Counted from the stretch's first letter, positions 3,661 through 26,593 are shown. The stretch is 64,000 nt of DNA from Leptospiraceae bacterium (GCA_024233835.1 JACKPC010000001.1:1477442-1541441), one strand, 5' to 3'. Numbers and translations: made by a program. The notes: a model not told the origin generated them from the letters alone.

Positions 3661-5037
3661 TTAAGAAATTAGTTTCAGTTTTTCAGCCCAGCTTCTTACA
3701 TTACCGGCTCCTATACTTAAAAATATATCTCCTTTTTGTAATTCCTTTTGCAGTATTTGTATATCTTCATCTATCTTTCCGCTGAGAAGGCTCGTTTTTT
3801 CAGTTGGTAAGCGCTGTGCAATAAGTCCTGTATGGATGCCGGCTATGGCCTCTTCACCTGCTGAGTAAATAGGGAGAAGAAAAATTTTATCAGCCTTAAT
3901 TAGAGATTCTGCAAATTCTCGGTATAATTCTTTAGTCCGGGTATAACGATGAGGTTGGAACAGGACAATGGAACGAGAAGAATACTCTTTTTTTAATATA
4001 TTTAAAGAATTTAATACAGCACTGATTTCTGTCGGATGATGGCCGTAATCATCATAGAGTCTTACACCTTTCCAATCCCCTAAAAATTCCAGTCTGCGCT
4101 CAACTCCTTCATACAAGGAAAGGGCCTTTAAGCTGGTTTTTGTTTCTATCCCGATTTGCTTACAGGCAAGATAAGCTAAGAAAGCGTTATGTAAATAGTG
4201 TCTTCCTGGAAAGGGACAGCTTAATTCGTAAGAATTTTCATCCTCTTTAAATATAAGTTTATTTGTATATATGGAAATCCTATAATGCGGAATTCCTTCT
4301 ATTTGCTTATCATCCTCGGAGAAACTCAGGATATTTTTTTTTAGCCCGGTTTTTATTAACATATTCCTCACACCGGGATCGGAAAGGTTGACTATGGAGA
4401 GGCTATCTCCTTTATTCTCGATAAATCTGGCAAAAGCTTCGGTAAGCTTTTCTTCGGTACCATAATAGTCGAGATGGTCTCTATCAATATTACTGAGTAG
4501 TTTTATCCTGGGAGTATAGATTGAAAAGCTTCCATCCGATTCATCGGCTTCAAAAACAGCCCAATCACTATTACCGGAGCGTCCTCCCCGGTTTTGTAAA
4601 AATGGTAGATTCCCACCTACCATAATCGATATATCTTTTTTAGCATGAAGGAGGATTCGAGAAACCATAGCCGTTGTGCTGGTTTTCCCGTGGGAGCCGG
4701 CTACTGCTACGCATTTCTTTTCTTGGAATAAGTTCTGTAGTATCTCAGAACGGTGAAAGGAAGGAATTCCTCTTTCTTCTAATTTTCTATAAACCGGATG
4801 GTTCTTGCGATTTATAGCGCTGGAGTAGATAAAGTAATCCTGTTCGGAGAGAATCTTATCGGAAGGTTCCGGGCTAATTTCTGCTCCTCTCTTCTGTAAA
4901 TCCCTTACTACTTTCGAATCGTTCTTGTCGTAGCCAAAAACCCTGATTCCTCTATCTAAAAGGATGTGGGCGATAGACGACATACCGGATCCACCGATAC
5001 CGAGTAGGAATGCATTCTTATTTTCTGGAAGTTTCAT
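3661..5037 (-). CDS. murC: UDP-N-acetylmuramate--L-alanine ligase
   Basis: GIGGSGMS N-terminal motif and the Mur ligase P-loop GSHGKTSTT; sits in the dcw cluster. Confidence 0.9.
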   Translation of the reverse strand: MKLPENKNAFLLGIGGSGMSSIAHILLDRGIRVFGYDKNDSKVVRDLQKRGAEISPEPSDKILSEQDYFIYSSAINRKNHPVYRKLEERGIPSFHRSEILQNLFQEKKCVAVAGSHGKTSTTAMVSRILLHAKKDISIMVGGNLPFLQNRGGRSGNSDWAVFEADESDGSFSIYTPRIKLLSNIDRDHLDYYGTEEKLTEAFARFIENKGDSLSIVNLSDPGVRNMLIKTGLKKNILSFSEDDKQIEGIPHYRISIYTNKLIFKEDENSYELSCPFPGRHYLHNAFLAYLACKQIGIETKTSLKALSLYEGVERRLEFLGDWKGVRLYDDYGHHPTEISAVLNSLNILKKEYSSRSIVLFQPHRYTRTKELYREFAESLIKADKIFLLPIYSAGEEAIAGIHTGLIAQRLPTEKTSLLSGKIDEDIQILQKELQKGDIFLSIGAGNVRSWAEKLKLIS

Positions 5038-20437: not shown

Positions 20438-22879
20438 ATGAAAACCTCTCCAAAAGAAAAGAGAACCAGAGAAAAATTAATTGATCCGGCTTTGAAAAAA
20501 GCGGGATGGGATTTTGAAAAACAGGTTGGCATGGAAGTAAAGCTGACCGATGGGAAAATTTTAGTCAATGGCACTTTGACACGGAGAGAAGATGCCCGAT
20601 ATGCGGATTATGTTTTGTATTTCAAACCCAATATTCCTATTGCTATCATTGAAGCAAAGGAAGAAAATCAATCTGCCAGAAAGGGTTTGCAGCAGGCATT
20701 GGATTATGCTTCTATGCTGGATGTGCCCTTTGTTTTTAGCACGAATGGAAAGTCCTTTATCTTTCATGATAAAACTGTAGCCGATGGAGAAATCGAAACA
20801 GAACTATCTATGGATGAATTTCCTTCGCCAAAAGAACTCTGGGAAAAATACAAAATCTATCATGGGATAACAGAAGAAAAACAGGTAAAAGTGATTGAGC
20901 AGGACTTTTATTTTGATGGTAGCGATAGAAAGCCGAGGTATTATCAACAGGTTGCTATCAACAAAGTAATTCGAGAAATTGCCAAAGGAAAAAACCGGCT
21001 TTTGCTTGTCATGGCAACAGGAACCGGAAAGACCTATACCGCTTTTCAGATTGCGTATCGTCTCTGGAAAAATGGTAGCAAGAAAAAGATTTTGTTTTTG
21101 GCAGATAGAACCGCATTGATTGATCAGACACGCAGGGGAGATTTTAAACACTTCAAAGACAACCTGACGGTTATCAAGAAAAAAGTAATTGAGCAGGGCG
21201 GAAAACAAAGGTTAATTTCCAACAAGAAAAGAGGCATTGATTCTTCCGACAAGGCTTATGAGATTTATCTCGGTTTGTATCAGGGTTTAAGCGATGCCGA
21301 CGGAATCGAAGATGCTTATAAAGATTTTCCGAGAGATTTTTTTGATTTGATTATCGTGGATGAGTGCCATAGGGGAAGTGCCAAAGCTGATAGTGCTTGG
21401 AGAGAAATACTAACTTATTTCCAATCGGCAACCCAGATCGGTATGACCGCGACTCCTAAAGAAACAAAAAAGATTTCCAATATTGAATATTTTGGTGATC
21501 CTGTTTATACCTATTCGCTCAAACAGGGAATCAATGACGGCTTTTTAGCTCCTTATAAAGTGATTCGTTTAACGTTAAATATTGATAAGGATGGTTGGCA
21601 ACCACCGAAAGGTTATTTGGATAAAAAAGGCAAACCGGTTAAAAATAGGATCTATAACCTGAAAGATTTTGATAAAAATCTTGTAGTAGAAGAACGCAGG
21701 AAAGTAGTTGCACAAAAAATCACCGAATATCTAAAAGGCAATAAACAACGTTATGCGAAAACGATCCTTTTTTGTGTGGATATAGAACACGCCGAAGGAA
21801 TGACGACCGCACTTATCAACGCAAATGCGGACATCTGTAGATCGAATGATAAATACGTTATGCAAATTACCGGGGATAATGAGGAAGGCAAAAGGGAACT
21901 GGATAATTTTACCAATCCCGAAGAGCCATATCCCACAATTGTTACCACTTCCAAACTATTGACAACAGGAGTAGATGCAAAAACCTGTAAGGTAATTGTC
22001 TTGGATAGTAACATTCAGTCGATGACAGAGTTTAAGCAAATCATCGGTCGTGGTACGAGGATTGATGAAGATTATGATAAGAGATATTTTACAATATTAG
22101 ATTTTAGAAATGTTACCAAATTATTTGAAGATGAGGAGTTTGATGGAGAACCTGTTAAAATCAAAATTAGTACAGAAAATGAAGACCTTTCCGATTTTGA
22201 AGAGGAAGGTTCTTTGGAAAATGATAAGGATTCTTTAGAATCAGAGAAGAAAAACCCCGGTCTTATAAAAGCACATTCTTCAACAAAATCGCCTAAACCA
22301 CCACGACCACCCAAAAAAGAAAAAGTATATGTGAATGGAATTAACGTCACTCTTCTTTTGGAAAGAAATCTTTTCTTTGATAGAGAAGGAAGGCCTATTA
22401 CAGAAAGTTTGGTGGATTATACAAAACCTATCATCCAGAAGAAATTCAAAACACTCAAAGCTTTCTTGAAAAAGTGGAACTCTGTAGAAAGAAAAACCGC
22501 CATTATCAAAGAACTCGAAGCGGATGGTGTCCTTATCGAAGAGCTTAAAAAAGCTGTTGATAAGAATGTAGATATTTTTGATCTTATCTGTCATATAGCT
22601 TATGATATGCCTCCATTGACCAGAAGGGAAAGAGCGAATAACGTCAAGAAAAGAAACTACTTTACCAAGTATGGAGAAACCGCCCGCAAGGTGATAGACG
22701 CTCTGATTGATAAATATTCCGATGGTGGATTTGAAAATCTGGAAAGTGGTGAGGTTCTTTATTTAGAACCTTTTAGTGAATACGGTTCACCGATGGAAAT
22801 CATTGAAGAATTTGGTGGACTTGAGGATTATAACAAGACAATTAAAGAAATAGAAAACTATATTTATGAGGTGGCTTAA
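20438..22879 (+). CDS. hsdR: Type I restriction enzyme R subunit (EcoEI/type IB-like, 813 aa)
   Basis: N-terminal KLIDPALKKAGW restriction domain, DEAD-box helicase motifs (MATGTGKT, DECHR), C-terminal EcoEI_R_C-like domain. Confidence 0.9.
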   Translation: MKTSPKEKRTREKLIDPALKKAGWDFEKQVGMEVKLTDGKILVNGTLTRREDARYADYVLYFKPNIPIAIIEAKEENQSARKGLQQALDYASMLDVPFVFSTNGKSFIFHDKTVADGEIETELSMDEFPSPKELWEKYKIYHGITEEKQVKVIEQDFYFDGSDRKPRYYQQVAINKVIREIAKGKNRLLLVMATGTGKTYTAFQIAYRLWKNGSKKKILFLADRTALIDQTRRGDFKHFKDNLTVIKKKVIEQGGKQRLISNKKRGIDSSDKAYEIYLGLYQGLSDADGIEDAYKDFPRDFFDLIIVDECHRGSAKADSAWREILTYFQSATQIGMTATPKETKKISNIEYFGDPVYTYSLKQGINDGFLAPYKVIRLTLNIDKDGWQPPKGYLDKKGKPVKNRIYNLKDFDKNLVVEERRKVVAQKITEYLKGNKQRYAKTILFCVDIEHAEGMTTALINANADICRSNDKYVMQITGDNEEGKRELDNFTNPEEPYPTIVTTSKLLTTGVDAKTCKVIVLDSNIQSMTEFKQIIGRGTRIDEDYDKRYFTILDFRNVTKLFEDEEFDGEPVKIKISTENEDLSDFEEEGSLENDKDSLESEKKNPGLIKAHSSTKSPKPPRPPKKEKVYVNGINVTLLLERNLFFDREGRPITESLVDYTKPIIQKKFKTLKAFLKKWNSVERKTAIIKELEADGVLIEELKKAVDKNVDIFDLICHIAYDMPPLTRRERANNVKKRNYFTKYGETARKVIDALIDKYSDGGFENLESGEVLYLEPFSEYGSPMEIIEEFGGLEDYNKTIKEIENYIYEVA

Positions 22880-24315
22880 TGTCAGTTAATATTTCGGGTG
22901 TTTTAAAATCGATTCGGGATTTTATGCGTCAGGATGCAGGCTTGAACGGTGATGCACAGAGATTGGAACAACTTGGCTGGATGATTTTTTTAAAAATCTT
23001 CAGTGATAAGGATAAAGAATTACAGTTCACTTCCAATGGAAAGTATAAGTCACCCTTACCGGAAAAATATCATTGGGAGAATATTAAGAAATATGCAGAT
23101 ACCGAAAAAGCGGAAGATTTTTTAACCTTTATTGATCAGGGATTATTTAAAGATTTAAAAGAGTTGGATATAAGCACCGGAAACGAAAGAGTCAAACTTC
23201 TCAAGAATGTGTTTGAAGGAAATAATAATTATATGAAGTCCGGCACGCTTTTGAAAAAGGTAATCTACAAACTGGATGAAATTAATTTTAACAGAGCAAA
23301 GGATAAACATGTTTTTGGTGATATTTATGAAACCATGCTCAAAGAATTGCAAAGTGCGGGAAAGAGTGGAGAGTTTTATACACCGAGAGCTATAACCCAG
23401 TTTTTGACCGATATAGTAGACCCAAAAATCGGTGAAAAAGTTTTGGATCCGGCATGTGGAACCGGTGGTTTCTTATCTGCCTGTGTAGAGAAGTTGAAAA
23501 CTTTAGCAAAGACTACAAAGGAGAGAGACTCTATCCAAAAAAATATTATGGGTATAGAGTTCAAACCTCTTCCGTATATGTTAGCAGTTACGAATATGAT
23601 TTTGCACGATGTGGCTCTTCCTTCGATTGAAGAAAGGGACTCTTTGGACAAACCAGTTACGGAATACAAAGAAAAAGATCGTGTAGACATCATCCTTGCC
23701 AATCCTCCTTTTGGTGGAGTAGTGACAGAAGGATACGAAAAGAACTTTCCTTTGAACTACAGGACAAAAGAAAGTGCGGATTTGTTTCTTGTGCTATTTA
23801 TCAATCTATTGAAAGAAGGTGGACGGGCTGCTATTGTTCTACCGGATGGCTCGCTTACCGGTGATGGCGTTAAACAGCGGATACGGGAACTCTGGATGAC
23901 GAAGTGCAATTTACATACAATCATTCGGCTGCCAAATTCGGTCTTTCAGCCTTATGCTTCGGTAGCAACAAATTTATTGTTTTTTGAAAAAGGAACACCT
24001 ACAAAGGATATTTGGTATTATGAACATACCCTGCCCGAAGGTCAAAAGTCCTACAGCAAAACTAAACCCATTCAGGTGAATGAATTTGACCCGATCAAGA
24101 AGTGGTGGAATAAACGCAAAGAGAGTGAAGTTTGCTGGAAAGTCAATATCAAGGAAATCGAAGCTCGCGGTTATGACCTCGATATAAAAAACCCCAATAA
24201 AAAAGAAGAAGAGCACGAGTATACCAGCAAGGAATTAATCTCCATGCTCGGAGAATCATTTTCCAAAAGCGATAAAATTTTGAAGGTAATCCAAAAGGAA
24301 TTGAAAGTTGGATAA
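22879..24315 (+). CDS. hsdM: Type I RM N6-adenine DNA methyltransferase M subunit
   Basis: NPPFG catalytic motif and the AdoMet motif DPACGTGGFL. Start overlaps the hsdR stop (ATGA-type coupling). Confidence 0.9.
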   Translation: MSVNISGVLKSIRDFMRQDAGLNGDAQRLEQLGWMIFLKIFSDKDKELQFTSNGKYKSPLPEKYHWENIKKYADTEKAEDFLTFIDQGLFKDLKELDISTGNERVKLLKNVFEGNNNYMKSGTLLKKVIYKLDEINFNRAKDKHVFGDIYETMLKELQSAGKSGEFYTPRAITQFLTDIVDPKIGEKVLDPACGTGGFLSACVEKLKTLAKTTKERDSIQKNIMGIEFKPLPYMLAVTNMILHDVALPSIEERDSLDKPVTEYKEKDRVDIILANPPFGGVVTEGYEKNFPLNYRTKESADLFLVLFINLLKEGGRAAIVLPDGSLTGDGVKQRIRELWMTKCNLHTIIRLPNSVFQPYASVATNLLFFEKGTPTKDIWYYEHTLPEGQKSYSKTKPIQVNEFDPIKKWWNKRKESEVCWKVNIKEIEARGYDLDIKNPNKKEEEHEYTSKELISMLGESFSKSDKILKVIQKELKVG

Positions 24316-24694
24316 CCCTGCATCACAGTTTATCATTTATACCACCGAGTTGGGAGATACCCGGATCGATGTCCGAATGGAAGAAGAAACCGTCTGGCTA
24401 TCCCAAAAGCAAATGGCGGAGTTGTATCAAAAAGATGTGAGAACGGTTAATGAACATATTCAAAACATCTATTCAGAAGAAGAGCTTCTACCGGAGGCAA
24501 CTATCCGGAATTTCCGGATAGTTCAACAGGAGGGAAAAAGACAGGTTTCGCGTGATATTGACCATTATAATCTGGATATGATTCTCTCTGTCGGTTACAG
24601 GATTAAATCGTCTATTGCGACTCGTTTCCGCCAGTGGGCTACCGAAAGGCTGAGGGAATACATCATCAAAGGGAAAATAAATGTCTTTGTATAA
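24308..24694 (+). pseudogene. rhuM: RhuM-family (Fic/DOC-like) virulence-protein gene, N-terminal 128-aa fragment only
   Basis: Matches the RhuM N-terminus through LREYIIKG, then diverges (KINVFV*) where full-length RhuM continues F.MDDERLK for ~200 more residues. Confidence 0.7.
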
Positions 24695-25256
24695 AAATAA
24701 ATACCGCATCGAATCTGCCCGAAAAAAGAATTGGGATTATACCAGCCCGGCATATTATTTTATCACGATATGCACCAGGGACAGAAAACATTATTTTGGT
24801 GAAATAAAAAATGGAATCATGGAATTAAATCCTGTGGGAAAAATCATTCACGATGAATGGTACAAAACCCAATCCATGCGTCCGAATATATATTTGGATG
24901 AATTTATTATCATGCCCAACCATATTCATGGAATTATCCAAATTGATTATAAACATCATCGTAGAGACGCGTTGCATCATCGTAGAGACGCGTTGCAATG
25001 CGTCTCTACGATGATGCATTATTCGTACGTATATATCCAAAATATATCGCATATTGTCCGTGGATTTAAATCATCCTGTACCAATCGAATCCATACAGAA
25101 ATCGGTTGTGAATTTGAATGGCAATCCCGTTTTTATGATCGTGTCATCCGAACCGAACCGGAATTACATAACACACGGAAATATATAAAAAACAATCCAA
25201 AAAAATGGCAATCCGTGTATGATTCCCGTGACAGAAAACAGGAAAAAATCCAATGA
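24681..25256 (+). CDS. tnpA: IS200/IS605-family Y1 (HUH) transposase, REP-associated tyrosine transposase (RAYT)-like
   Basis: HUH motif NHIHGII and catalytic Tyr motif WQSRFYDRVIR, 191 aa. Start overlaps the rhuM fragment and the stop overlaps the hsdS start (ATGA). Confidence 0.8.
   Translation: MSLYKNKYRIESARKKNWDYTSPAYYFITICTRDRKHYFGEIKNGIMELNPVGKIIHDEWYKTQSMRPNIYLDEFIIMPNHIHGIIQIDYKHHRRDALHHRRDALQCVSTMMHYSYVYIQNISHIVRGFKSSCTNRIHTEIGCEFEWQSRFYDRVIRTEPELHNTRKYIKNNPKKWQSVYDSRDRKQEKIQ
24954..25016. repeat. 63-bp composite repeat inside tnpA: a 21-bp unit (catcatcgtagagacgcgttg) duplicated in tandem, then its inverted copy; forms a ~20-bp palindrome with one mismatch
   Basis: Read directly: 24954-24974 and 24975-24995 are identical; 24996-25016 is the reverse complement with one mismatch. 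The whole structure stays in frame (HHRRDALHHRRDALQCVSTMMH). Confidence 0.9.
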
Positions 25257-26593
25257 ATAAAAACGAATGGCGAAAGGTGAAATTGGGGGATGTGATTTCA
25301 GCACGGAATGAACGGTATAAACCTGATGACGATTATATTTCAAAGTTACAAAGGATAGATAAAATTGATTTTACTGGAAATATATTTTTATCAAACAATC
25401 CATCAAAAACGGATATGATTTTAATTAAACCGGGTGATTTTGTAATTTCAGGAATCAATGTTGCAAAAGGTGCATTAGCAGTTTATAATGGAACGGAAGA
25501 AGTATCTGCTACTATTCATTATTCTTCCTATACATTAAACGAAAAAGAATTATATTTGGATTATTTTAAAAGTTTTTTACGAAGTTCGGAATTTTTACGA
25601 TTATTACAAGAACAAATTCCCGGTGGTATTAAAACAGAAGTAAAACCAAAGCATATTTTACCTTTAGAAATTTCCCTACCTCCCTTATCCGAACAAAAGC
25701 GAATCTCAGCCAAATTGCAATCCATCCAAGCACAGCACACAGAACTTACCGCCGAAATACAAAACCAAAAATCCTATATCAAGCAACTTAAACAGGCAAT
25801 CTTGCAGGATGCTGTCACAGGAAAGCTAACAGAAGATTGGCGAAAGACCCAAGCGGGAAAAAACGCAGGCAATGCCAGAGAACTCTTGGAGCAAATCAAA
25901 GCAGAGAAAGAAAAGCTCATCGCCGAGGGCAAGATAAAAAAACAGAAACCGTTACCACCGATAAAACAGGAAGAGATACCTTTTGACTTGCCAGCGGGTT
26001 GGGTTTGGACGAGATTGGGGGTGGTGATTGATGACAAACCAAAAAATGGTTATTCACCTAAAGAAGTTAGCTATCCAACAGAAATTAAGAGCTTAAAATT
26101 AGGAGCTACAACTTGGGGAACTTTTAATTCAAATGAATACAAATATATAGATGAAGTTATTCCTAAAGAATCTCCATATTGGTTAAAAAATGGAGATATT
26201 TTAATTCAAAGAAGTAATTCTTTAGATTATGTCGGAGTGAGTGCAGTATACGATAGAGAAGATTTTCAATTTATTTATCCGGATTTAATGATGAAAATTC
26301 GTTCAGTTATTATTTCAGCTAAAAGCTTACATCTTTTGTTGTCTTCTCCTTATATGAGAAATTACTTTAGAGCAAATGCTAAAGGTGCACAAAAAACAAT
26401 GCCAAAAATTAATCAGGATATAGTTATTAATGCGTTACTCCCACTCCCACCCCTCGCCGAGCAGGAAGAAATCGTGCGGCGGGTGGATGTGTTGTTTGCT
26501 CAGGTGAAGGAGCTGGAACAGGAAGTGGAGAAACGCGAAAAGTATGCAGAAAGCTTGATGCAGGTTGTTTTAAGCGAAGCGTTGCGCGGGTGA
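25253..26593 (+). CDS. hsdS: Type I RM specificity subunit with two target-recognition domains
   Basis: Typical HsdS N-terminus (WRKVKLGDVIS) and two conserved spacer regions (LPPLSEQKRI...; LPLPPLAEQEEIVRRVD...). Confidence 0.85.
   Translation: MNKNEWRKVKLGDVISARNERYKPDDDYISKLQRIDKIDFTGNIFLSNNPSKTDMILIKPGDFVISGINVAKGALAVYNGTEEVSATIHYSSYTLNEKELYLDYFKSFLRSSEFLRLLQEQIPGGIKTEVKPKHILPLEISLPPLSEQKRISAKLQSIQAQHTELTAEIQNQKSYIKQLKQAILQDAVTGKLTEDWRKTQAGKNAGNARELLEQIKAEKEKLIAEGKIKKQKPLPPIKQEEIPFDLPAGWVWTRLGVVIDDKPKNGYSPKEVSYPTEIKSLKLGATTWGTFNSNEYKYIDEVIPKESPYWLKNGDILIQRSNSLDYVGVSAVYDREDFQFIYPDLMMKIRSVIISAKSLHLLLSSPYMRNYFRANAKGAQKTMPKINQDIVINALLPLPPLAEQEEIVRRVDVLFAQVKELEQEVEKREKYAESLMQVVLSEALRG

Follow-up and report, generated by a model that had tools for sequence, protein, structure and literature searches.

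TnpA_Y1 proteins of subclass 2.4 are recognized by the motifs NH[IFV]H, WQ and YIxNNP, have a median length of 194 aa and carry, between beta3 and alphaC, an insert that varies among them (Quentin, Siguier, Chandler & Fichant 2018, BMC Genomics 19:475), and correspond to group 4 of the REP (repetitive extragenic palindrome)-associated tyrosine transposases (RAYTs) of Bertels et al. 2017 (Quentin et al. 2018). Class 2 proteins have the tyrosine signature Y---NP and those of class 1.1 (IS200/IS605) Y---Q; in-frame double-foot REPs inside subclass 2.4 genes have already been described, with a loop as their proposed location (Quentin et al. 2018). The function of RAYTs and their maintenance in single copy, a question raised by Bertels et al. 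2017, are still unsettled. Here we describe a RAYT gene of this subclass in a 64,000-nt stretch of DNA (the window) from a Leptospiraceae bacterium (GCA_024233835.1 JACKPC010000001.1:1477442-1541441); absences reported for the window refer to these 64 kb. The gene is located in a Type I restriction-modification (RM) operon, directly behind a truncated rhuM. With a probability of about 0.6, a slot once occupied by a full rhuM now holds 122 rhuM codons and an intact RAYT gene, which arrived by insertion followed by deletion and is kept by selection as a passenger of the operon.

At this locus, a type IB (EcoAI-like) RM operon has the order hsdR-hsdM-[accessory slot]-hsdS. It combines a helicase/nuclease R subunit, an N6-methyltransferase (MTase) M subunit and an S subunit with two target-recognition domains (TRDs). 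The five open reading frames (ORFs) are as follows.

20438-22879, + strand: hsdR, 813 aa; NCBIfam NF046051 (EcoAI/FtnUII-type R subunit), 1092 bits against a cut-off of 550; Pfam ResIII, EcoEI_R_C and HSDR_N.
22879-24315, + strand: hsdM, 478 aa; Pfam N6_Mtase (240 bits) and HsdM_N; PADLOC MTase_I, E 8e-179.
24308-24694, + strand: rhuM', an N-terminal fragment of a RhuM-family gene, 128 aa, TTG start; Pfam PF13310, 86 bits; PADLOC PDC-S05/S23.
24681-25256, + strand: TnpA_REP/RAYT (HUH/Y1) gene, subclass 2.4 (Bertels group 4), 191 aa; assigned by motifs, match to 4ER8 and fold.
25253-26593, + strand: hsdS, 446 aa, two TRDs; Pfam Methylase_S in two stretches; PADLOC Specificity_I, E 3e-64.

All five are co-oriented and overlap by 1 nt (hsdR/hsdM), 8 nt (hsdM/rhuM'), 14 nt (rhuM'/RAYT) and 4 nt (RAYT/hsdS; ATGA, 25253-25256). 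A first-pass annotation of this DNA had described a Type I RM operon packed by start/stop overlaps, and we recovered every one of its ORFs and overlaps at the same coordinates. The GC content across the region showed no step, and that of the RAYT gene matched its flanks.

Judging from its sequence and modelled fold, the 191-aa gene is an intact TnpA_REP/RAYT of subclass 2.4, ordinary for its class. Homologues number more than 5600 and are spread across many phyla, and all 24 residues invariant in the family alignment were present in the window RAYT. The following features within the gene are referred to below.

24921-24929, + strand: HUH motif codons H81-I82-H83; H81 and H83 are invariant in the family alignment.
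25182-25184, + strand: catalytic tyrosine codon Y168 (YIKNNP), invariant in the alignment and aligned with the Tyr motif region of 4ER8.
24954-24995, + strand: two tandem copies of the 21-nt left arm CATCATCGTAGAGACGCGTTG, 100% identical to each other and the same in all assemblies covering the site.
24973-25018, no strand assigned: 46-nt palindrome with 23-bp arms and one G/A mismatch, encoding residues ~98-113 in a loop disordered in the model.

When compared with the characters of subclass 2.4 (Table 1 of Quentin et al. 2018), the HUH motif, in the context M-P-N-H-I-H-G (residues 78-84; 24912-24932), conformed to NH[IFV]H, and W147-Q148-S-R-F and Y168-I-K-N-N-P, which align to residues 78-123 of 4ER8, conformed to WQ and YIxNNP. 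The family alignment comprised a conserved N-terminus (M-x-L-Y-K-N-K-Y-R-I-E-S-x-R), MPNHIHGI, WQSRF and YIKNNP, with a hypervariable block directly after HUH; this block and the length of 191 aa agree with the insert and size of the subclass. The alignment showed the HUH and Tyr motifs to be intact and bore out the first-pass annotation, which had called the gene an HUH/Y1 transposase and had named lack of these motifs as evidence against itself. The best sequence match in the PDB, obtained with the family profile, was the E. coli TnpAREP (4ER8). An AlphaFold (AF2) model with a predicted local distance difference test (pLDDT) score of 83 gave 4ER8_A as the top Foldseek match (E 5e-7), followed by the TnpA structures of IS608, ISDra2 and IS200, and contained a strand at residues 81-88, a loop at 97-115 with pLDDT <50, and a helix at 122-141. 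The product is predicted to be a nuclease-ligase for single-stranded DNA (ssDNA), of the HUH/Y1 type that binds to hairpins with a GTAG foot (REPs). No second Y1 copy was found in the window by tblastn.

The palindrome arises because the tandem 21-nt unit is directly followed by its inverted copy (24954-25018). Its core (24982-25009; GTAGAGAC...GTCTCTAC, GTAG...CTAC) is a double-foot REP, GTAGAGACGCGTTG/CAATGCGTCTCTAC (in full GTAGAGACGCGTTGCAATGCGTCTCTAC), and lies in frame between HUH and Tyr, as GT[AG]G...C[TC]AC does in subclass 2.4. Folding energies were -28 kcal/mol for DNA (z -7.8) and -43 kcal/mol for RNA (z -7.1), and it was by far the strongest hairpin in the 64 kb. The 17-mer of its core had no other occurrence in the window even at 3 mismatches, and no GTAG palindrome (<=3 mismatches) was found elsewhere in the window or in the RAYT flanks, so that flanking and dispersed REPs are absent here. 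A search for further RAYT copies and REP-like hairpins, a check suggested with the first-pass annotation, thus returned within the window only the single gene and its internal palindrome. An Rfam scan of 24000-25600 at E up to 10 gave only generic hairpin matches to miRNA models, far below gathering scores.

Internal and flanking REPs (within 300 nt) were counted in 161 homologous loci. The GT[AG]G...C[TC]AC palindrome was located between HUH and Tyr in 95 of them, with the GTAGAGAC foot in 79/95; in 80/95 it was perfect to the centre, and the inner bases varied but were always compensated. Of the three reading frames, only the two that are free of a TAG stop occur (49 and 46 loci). Translated in homologues, the REP site yields RRDAMHCVST from one of these frames and VETHCNASLQ from the other, indicating that the DNA is conserved at the REP and the peptide is not. 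The REP-encoded residues 97-115 are modelled as a disordered surface loop between the HUH strand and the next helix, as Quentin et al. proposed. An internal REP without a flanking one was present in 73/161 loci, and the state seen in the window is therefore common for the subclass. We dropped the intragenic palindrome as a new feature, as it had been described by Quentin et al. 2018. A practical rule for annotators follows: peptides like RRDALQCVST or VETHCNASLQ in "transposase" genes represent a translated DNA palindrome, not a conserved protein motif.

The first-pass annotation had also argued that the locus leaves no room for the hairpin-containing ends of an insertion sequence (IS), and had taken this as a sign of domestication. 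This is true of the flanks, but the cognate hairpin lies inside the gene as the double-foot REP; because an intragenic hairpin is a published hallmark of subclass 2.4, the lack of room alone is no argument for domestication. Many relatives also have flanking REP copies, located 20-45 nt from the start codon or overlapping the stop so that the GTAG foot supplies TAG. In six loci (L008, L014, L016, L057, L076 and L077) the TAG stop of the RAYT is the TAG of the flanking REP's GTAG foot, and gene end and REP are fused. In another locus (L157:5151-5225) two GTAGAGAC-footed palindromes appear within the RAYT gene upstream of the usual site, before the HUH codons, an arrangement that suggests a second permissive loop for REP insertion.

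The gene preceding the RAYT is clearly incomplete. The rhuM' product covered only positions 1-59 of the 252 of the PF13310 profile, against an expected full length of ~330 aa (the full-length reference was the 335-aa RhuM of locus L007). RhuM homology stopped at 24673, after ...LREYIIKG, where homologues go on with FVLDDERLK; the alignment and tblastn with four RhuM proteins gave the same end each time. The first 122 rhuM codons are retained and ~200 are lost, while the last 7 codons of rhuM' (KINVFV*) come from the RAYT segment read in another frame. No other piece of rhuM was detected in the window by tblastn, downstream or elsewhere. The first-pass annotation had placed the break exactly after LREYIIKG and had read the locus as a record of decay of the RhuM module; both points agree with these results.

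The exact 128-aa rhuM' product was present on contigs of 7 SRA runs and one NCBI Leptospiraceae metagenome-assembled genome (MAG). The eight corresponding assemblies (7 Logan assemblies from different SRA runs, and the MAG contig L082, GCA_020440905.1) matched the region at 99.9-100% with the same arrangement. Four of them (L163, L164, L166 and L167) span the whole RAYT gene into hsdS, and four (L082, L165, L168 and L169) stop within or just past the palindrome, a typical assembler failure at such a structure. Since eight independent assemblies agree and four span the RAYT gene, the junction is not an assembly artefact; an intact rhuM elsewhere in the locus, which the first-pass annotation had named as a contrary finding that would point to such an artefact, was not encountered. 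The MAG contig is identical to the window from 23404 on, and upstream of that point (L082:1-1313) an EI24-family gene replaces hsdR and the 5' part of hsdM. Either the contig is chimeric or it comes from a strain whose RM operon is broken, with no obvious repeat at the breakpoint.

Short RhuM ORFs are widespread. The 120 best rhuM' homologues were all 127-222 aa long, and in a dozen that were aligned the homology breaks at varied points and is followed by unrelated tails. Some are on very long contigs and hence are not contig-end partials, and PADLOC includes many short PDC-S05 models. rhuM' itself also occurs in a version of 105 aa, on a contig of 2.05 Mb. Either rhuM is broken unusually often or its N-terminal domain works alone, and the fragment in the window may retain some function. 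Within rhuM' we also observed a perfect palindrome with 12-bp arms, AACTATCCGGAA-T-TTCCGGATAGTT (24499-24523), which encodes the conserved ATIRNFRIV and is the second strongest hairpin near the locus; the chance expectation of a perfect 12-bp stem in 64 kb is ~0.03.

The closest relative of the RAYT gene is on a JGI metagenome contig (L081), with 78% aa and 79% nt identity. The boundaries of the segment were defined by this relative and by the RhuM alignment.

24668-24673, + strand: left junction, AAAGGG, where RhuM homology, in its final codons K-G, overlaps the beginning of the L081 RAYT-segment homology (Shine-Dalgarno region).
24668-25208, + strand: RAYT segment in common with L081, 541 nt, 79% nt identity by blastn.
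25209-25252, + strand: 44-nt tail between the end of L081 homology (25208) and the hsdS ATG.

The similarity to L081 extends from 13 nt before the ATG, at a Shine-Dalgarno-like AAAGGxG, to the KKW codons, with nothing similar outside it (blastn). The relative is located in a different Type I RM operon from that of the window, in the order truncated DUF1016_N ORF, RAYT, hsdM; its RAYT overlaps the DUF1016' by 14 nt in the same relative frame as in the window, and hsdM starts 5 nt past the RAYT stop. The L081 RAYT ends ...TGG-TAG-ATAG (L081:951-960), with GTAG exactly where the similarity to the window ends. The 44-nt tail of the window is either the native C-terminal tail of the RAYT or a leftover of the replaced DNA. 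At the left junction, RhuM homology reaches 24673 and L081 similarity begins at 24668; this overlap of 5-6 nt is consistent with a microhomology-mediated join. The dN/dS between the two RAYT genes was 0.13 at a dS of 0.76, which indicates that both have been kept as working genes in different RM operons. The first-pass annotation had described the gene as fixed inside the operon. This is half right: it is retained there, but with its relative in another RM operon beside another truncated accessory gene, the bare RAYT gene has changed context at least once. Scanning metagenomes for the RAYT protein gave no match above 51%, and L081 stays the only close relative in a different context.

A truncated accessory gene stands directly 5' of the RAYT in three cases (the window, L081 and L124). 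In the third, a full-length DUF1016/YhcG gene (L124:2458-3507) is followed ~1 kb downstream (4509-4976) by a truncated DUF1016_N ORF directly 5' of the RAYT, which is itself followed by two copies of its own REP. From these three cases, a deletion associated with the REP or the RAYT is plausible, though unproven. Relatives at similar positions with intact neighbours have the orders AbiEii-RAYT-hsdM (L141), hsdS-RAYT-hsdM (L039) and DUF1016-Y1-hsdS (L170). No common target sequence was found at the RAYT boundaries, where no motif was conserved beyond Shine-Dalgarno-like purine runs and REP feet.

We propose the following history for the window. A RAYT gene that, like many of its relatives, probably had flanking REPs at first would have landed just upstream of hsdS. 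A deletion from at or near its upstream REP into rhuM would then have followed, for which REPs, placed 20-45 nt from the start codon or supplying the stop, are well placed as seeds. It would have joined rhuM codon 122 to the RAYT ribosome-binding site at the 5-6-nt microhomology (AAAGG), removing the flanking REP together with the remaining rhuM. In favour of this history, operons with an empty slot (plain R-M-S) occur in the same RM family (L174 and L180). Deprived of its own flanks, the RAYT gene would now be transcribed with the hsd genes, and its translation would probably depend on the start/stop overlaps and on a Shine-Dalgarno sequence of its own. It would be a passenger that selection keeps intact. 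A consensus scan found no terminator-like site between the operon genes, so that the RAYT is probably on the hsd transcript; the sites that it did find were all within coding sequence, the REP being the strongest. The corresponding promoter scan gave no more sites than shuffled sequence and was uninformative. On this history the locus records turnover of the variable slot of a Type I RM system, in which the candidate defence gene rhuM was shortened by its C-terminal two-thirds and the gap was filled by an HUH gene.

Several points weigh against the proposed history. The order of insertion and deletion is deduced from end states, with no relative above ~69% HsdM identity. No near-identical hsdM-rhuM-hsdS allele was found for mapping the junction at the DNA level (the best HsdM relatives are <=69% identical), and in five sampled contexts of HsdM relatives the slots were empty or differently filled, none being a near-identical allele with an intact rhuM. 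The 13 nt of upstream similarity to L081 may represent convergent ribosome-binding sites, in which case the left boundary would be the ATG itself. The assignment of the gene missed curated thresholds, scoring 21.2 against 23 for Pfam Y1_Tnp PF01797 and 50.2 against 80 for NCBIfam REP_Tyr_transpos NF047646; these profiles represent subclass 2.4 poorly, since most close homologues also have no precomputed Pfam match. Finally, the recurrent tight packing on the sense strand in defence operons fits a selected functional link equally well as passive hitch-hiking.

This last point leads to an alternative that we regard as possible but doubtful, namely that the RAYT is a selected accessory part of defence operons and would occupy the variable slot of Type I RM operons instead of RhuM or DUF1016, either as an ssDNA-hairpin nuclease aiding defence (e.g., against ssDNA or rolling-circle replicons missed by restriction) or in control of the system. 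We surveyed the best 80 genome loci and an independent set of 80 metagenome loci (159 distinct). Ten of the 159, five from each collection, were inside Type I RM operons, all on the sense strand. The five of the genome set have the orders R-RAYT-M-S (L015 and L018), R-RAYT-M (L014), R-S-RAYT-M (L039) and M-rhuM-S-RAYT (L007); those of the metagenome set M-S-RAYT-R (L095 and L135), DUF1016...DUF1016'-RAYT (L124), S-AbiEi-AbiEii-RAYT-M (L141) and R-RAYT-M-S (L157). Their R subunits represent at least three families (EcoEI_R_C, EcoR124_C and T1RH-like_C), and gaps to the neighbours are <=4 nt where there are no flanking REPs. Type I MTases were the most frequent family of immediate neighbours (5/79 of the genome set), the rest being scattered housekeeping genes. 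In L157 (identical to L158), R and M are close relatives of those of the window, yet the RAYT is only 36% identical. Two further loci (L027:3986-4612 and L038:3938-4540), from different Bacteroidota genera (Amniculibacterium and Arcicella), are CRISPR-Cas I-B operons in which the RAYT separates cas7b from cas4 (cas3...cas7b-RAYT-cas4-cas1-cas2), on the sense strand and with a stop that overlaps or abuts cas4.

A selected role would also accord with the purifying selection across two RM contexts and with the fact that RhuM and DUF1016, which abut the RAYT in the window, L081 and L124, are documented guests between Type I core genes. The same holds for another Leptospiraceae MAG (L170), one of five sampled HsdM relatives, whose type IB operon (HsdM 68% and HsdR 60% identical to those of the window) contains a subclass 1.2 Y1 gene (DHCH, YIKNQEEHH; 140 aa) in the same slot between DUF1016 and hsdS (L170:9150-9900). 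This gene is flanked by 52-nt inverted repeats with the hairpin CCTCCAGCTTTAGCTGGAGG and by a 111-nt direct duplication of the DUF1016 3' end.

Against a selected role, ~90% of the homologues are beside unrelated housekeeping genes, and the position in the operon varies (R|M, M|S, S|R and after S), which suggests no single fixed partnership. PADLOC has no model matching RAYT, and defence loci are general sinks for mobile genes. The RM share of ~6% would be a large excess over the background for a random gene, which is our own rough estimate of well under 1% and not a measured, matched control. In the RAYT tree, the copies linked to RM are grouped in two parts, and independent events are thus fewer than loci. 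Neither Quentin et al. 2018 nor Bertels et al. 2017 mentions RM or CRISPR contexts, and we found no report of a link between RAYTs and Type I RM, CRISPR or defence islands in the literature. The embedding in defence operons is an unreported statistical lead to a putative functional link. The broader proposal, that non-IS Y1 HUH genes (RAYT 2.4, and subclass 1.2 in at least one related operon) are recurrent, selected and co-transcribed guests of Type I RM and CRISPR-Cas I-B operons, is offered tentatively and seems to us rather unlikely. If true, it would give RAYTs a physiological setting, with ssDNA-hairpin processing tied to defence or its horizontal spread. If the in-operon link with Type I RM and CRISPR-Cas proved reproducible, it would offer a concrete, testable clue to their function.

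It is improbable, although compatible with insertion, deletion and passenger status, that the hairpin acts in RNA as a partial terminator, RNase III site or decay barrier setting the expression of hsdR/hsdM relative to hsdS. REPs modulate mRNA stability and termination within operons, the RNA fold is strong, the stem stands immediately upstream of hsdS, and in the consensus scan the REP resembled a terminator on the sense strand. The T-tract that follows it (TTATTCGT) is weak, however, and the same REP is present in RAYT genes of every context, not only upstream of hsdS. Perfection to the centre is expected of a DNA hairpin, a cruciform or arm-to-arm copying and is not needed by an RNA stem-loop.

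A recent insertion of an autonomous IS200/IS605-type element is very improbable, in agreement with the first-pass annotation, which had called the gene RAYT-like. The weak Pfam Y1_Tnp match and the disruption of a host gene would fit such an insertion; the tyrosine motif is YIKNNP (class 2) and not the Y...Q of class 1.1, subterminal hairpins outside the ORF and a tnpB gene are both lacking, the window has one copy with a GC content matching its flanks, and the 3' part of rhuM is absent rather than displaced. Least credible is that the Y1 enzyme rearranges DNA of the RM locus, e.g., by the hsdS shuffling to which the first-pass annotation had thought it might be coupled, as its position between hsdM and hsdS is the only point in favour and we saw no evidence of such rearrangement: known hsdS shufflons rely on duplicated hsdS segments and on site-specific recombinases of the tyrosine or serine type, whereas the window has only one hsdS, with both TRDs intact. 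Neither a silent or partial hsdS (tblastn) nor another GTAG palindrome was found in the 64 kb, hsdS itself contains no inverted repeats, and the four assemblies covering that gene show no difference in it.

Compared with known systems, the window gene has in common with IS200/IS605 TnpA (IS608, ISDra2) the HUH/Y1 fold and the hairpin-recognising ssDNA chemistry expected of it. Those elements differ in Y...Q, subterminal hairpins at both ends, multiple copies and often tnpB, none of which was seen at this locus. The HUH strand and Tyr helix align with those of E. coli TnpAREP (4ER8; Messing et al. 2012), and the GTAG-reading WQxRF region is kept; TnpAREP belongs to subclass 2.2, is 19% identical, and has flanking REPs (REPtron) that are abundant genome-wide and no intragenic REP. 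Like the palindromes in frame in other coding genes (Rickettsia palindromic elements; intragenic REPs, Di Nocera et al. 2013), the internal REP appears to be tolerated as a surface loop, but here the host gene belongs to the enzyme family recognising such palindromes, and one position is conserved across phyla. No defence function is known or modelled for RAYTs, and most RAYT 2.4 genes are outside RM operons, unlike the accessory genes within Type I operons (RhuM, DUF1016/YhcG, Fic/DOC, AbiE and others), with which the RAYT nevertheless has the slot, strand and stop/start overlaps in common. With other RAYTs of subclass 2.4 it has in common the motifs, a size of ~194 aa, the insert, the in-frame double-foot REP, single copy and a patchy spread over many phyla. 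It differs in that flanking REPs and a dispersed REP family are both absent from the 64 kb, in its tandemly duplicated left REP arm and in its location inside a Type I RM operon.

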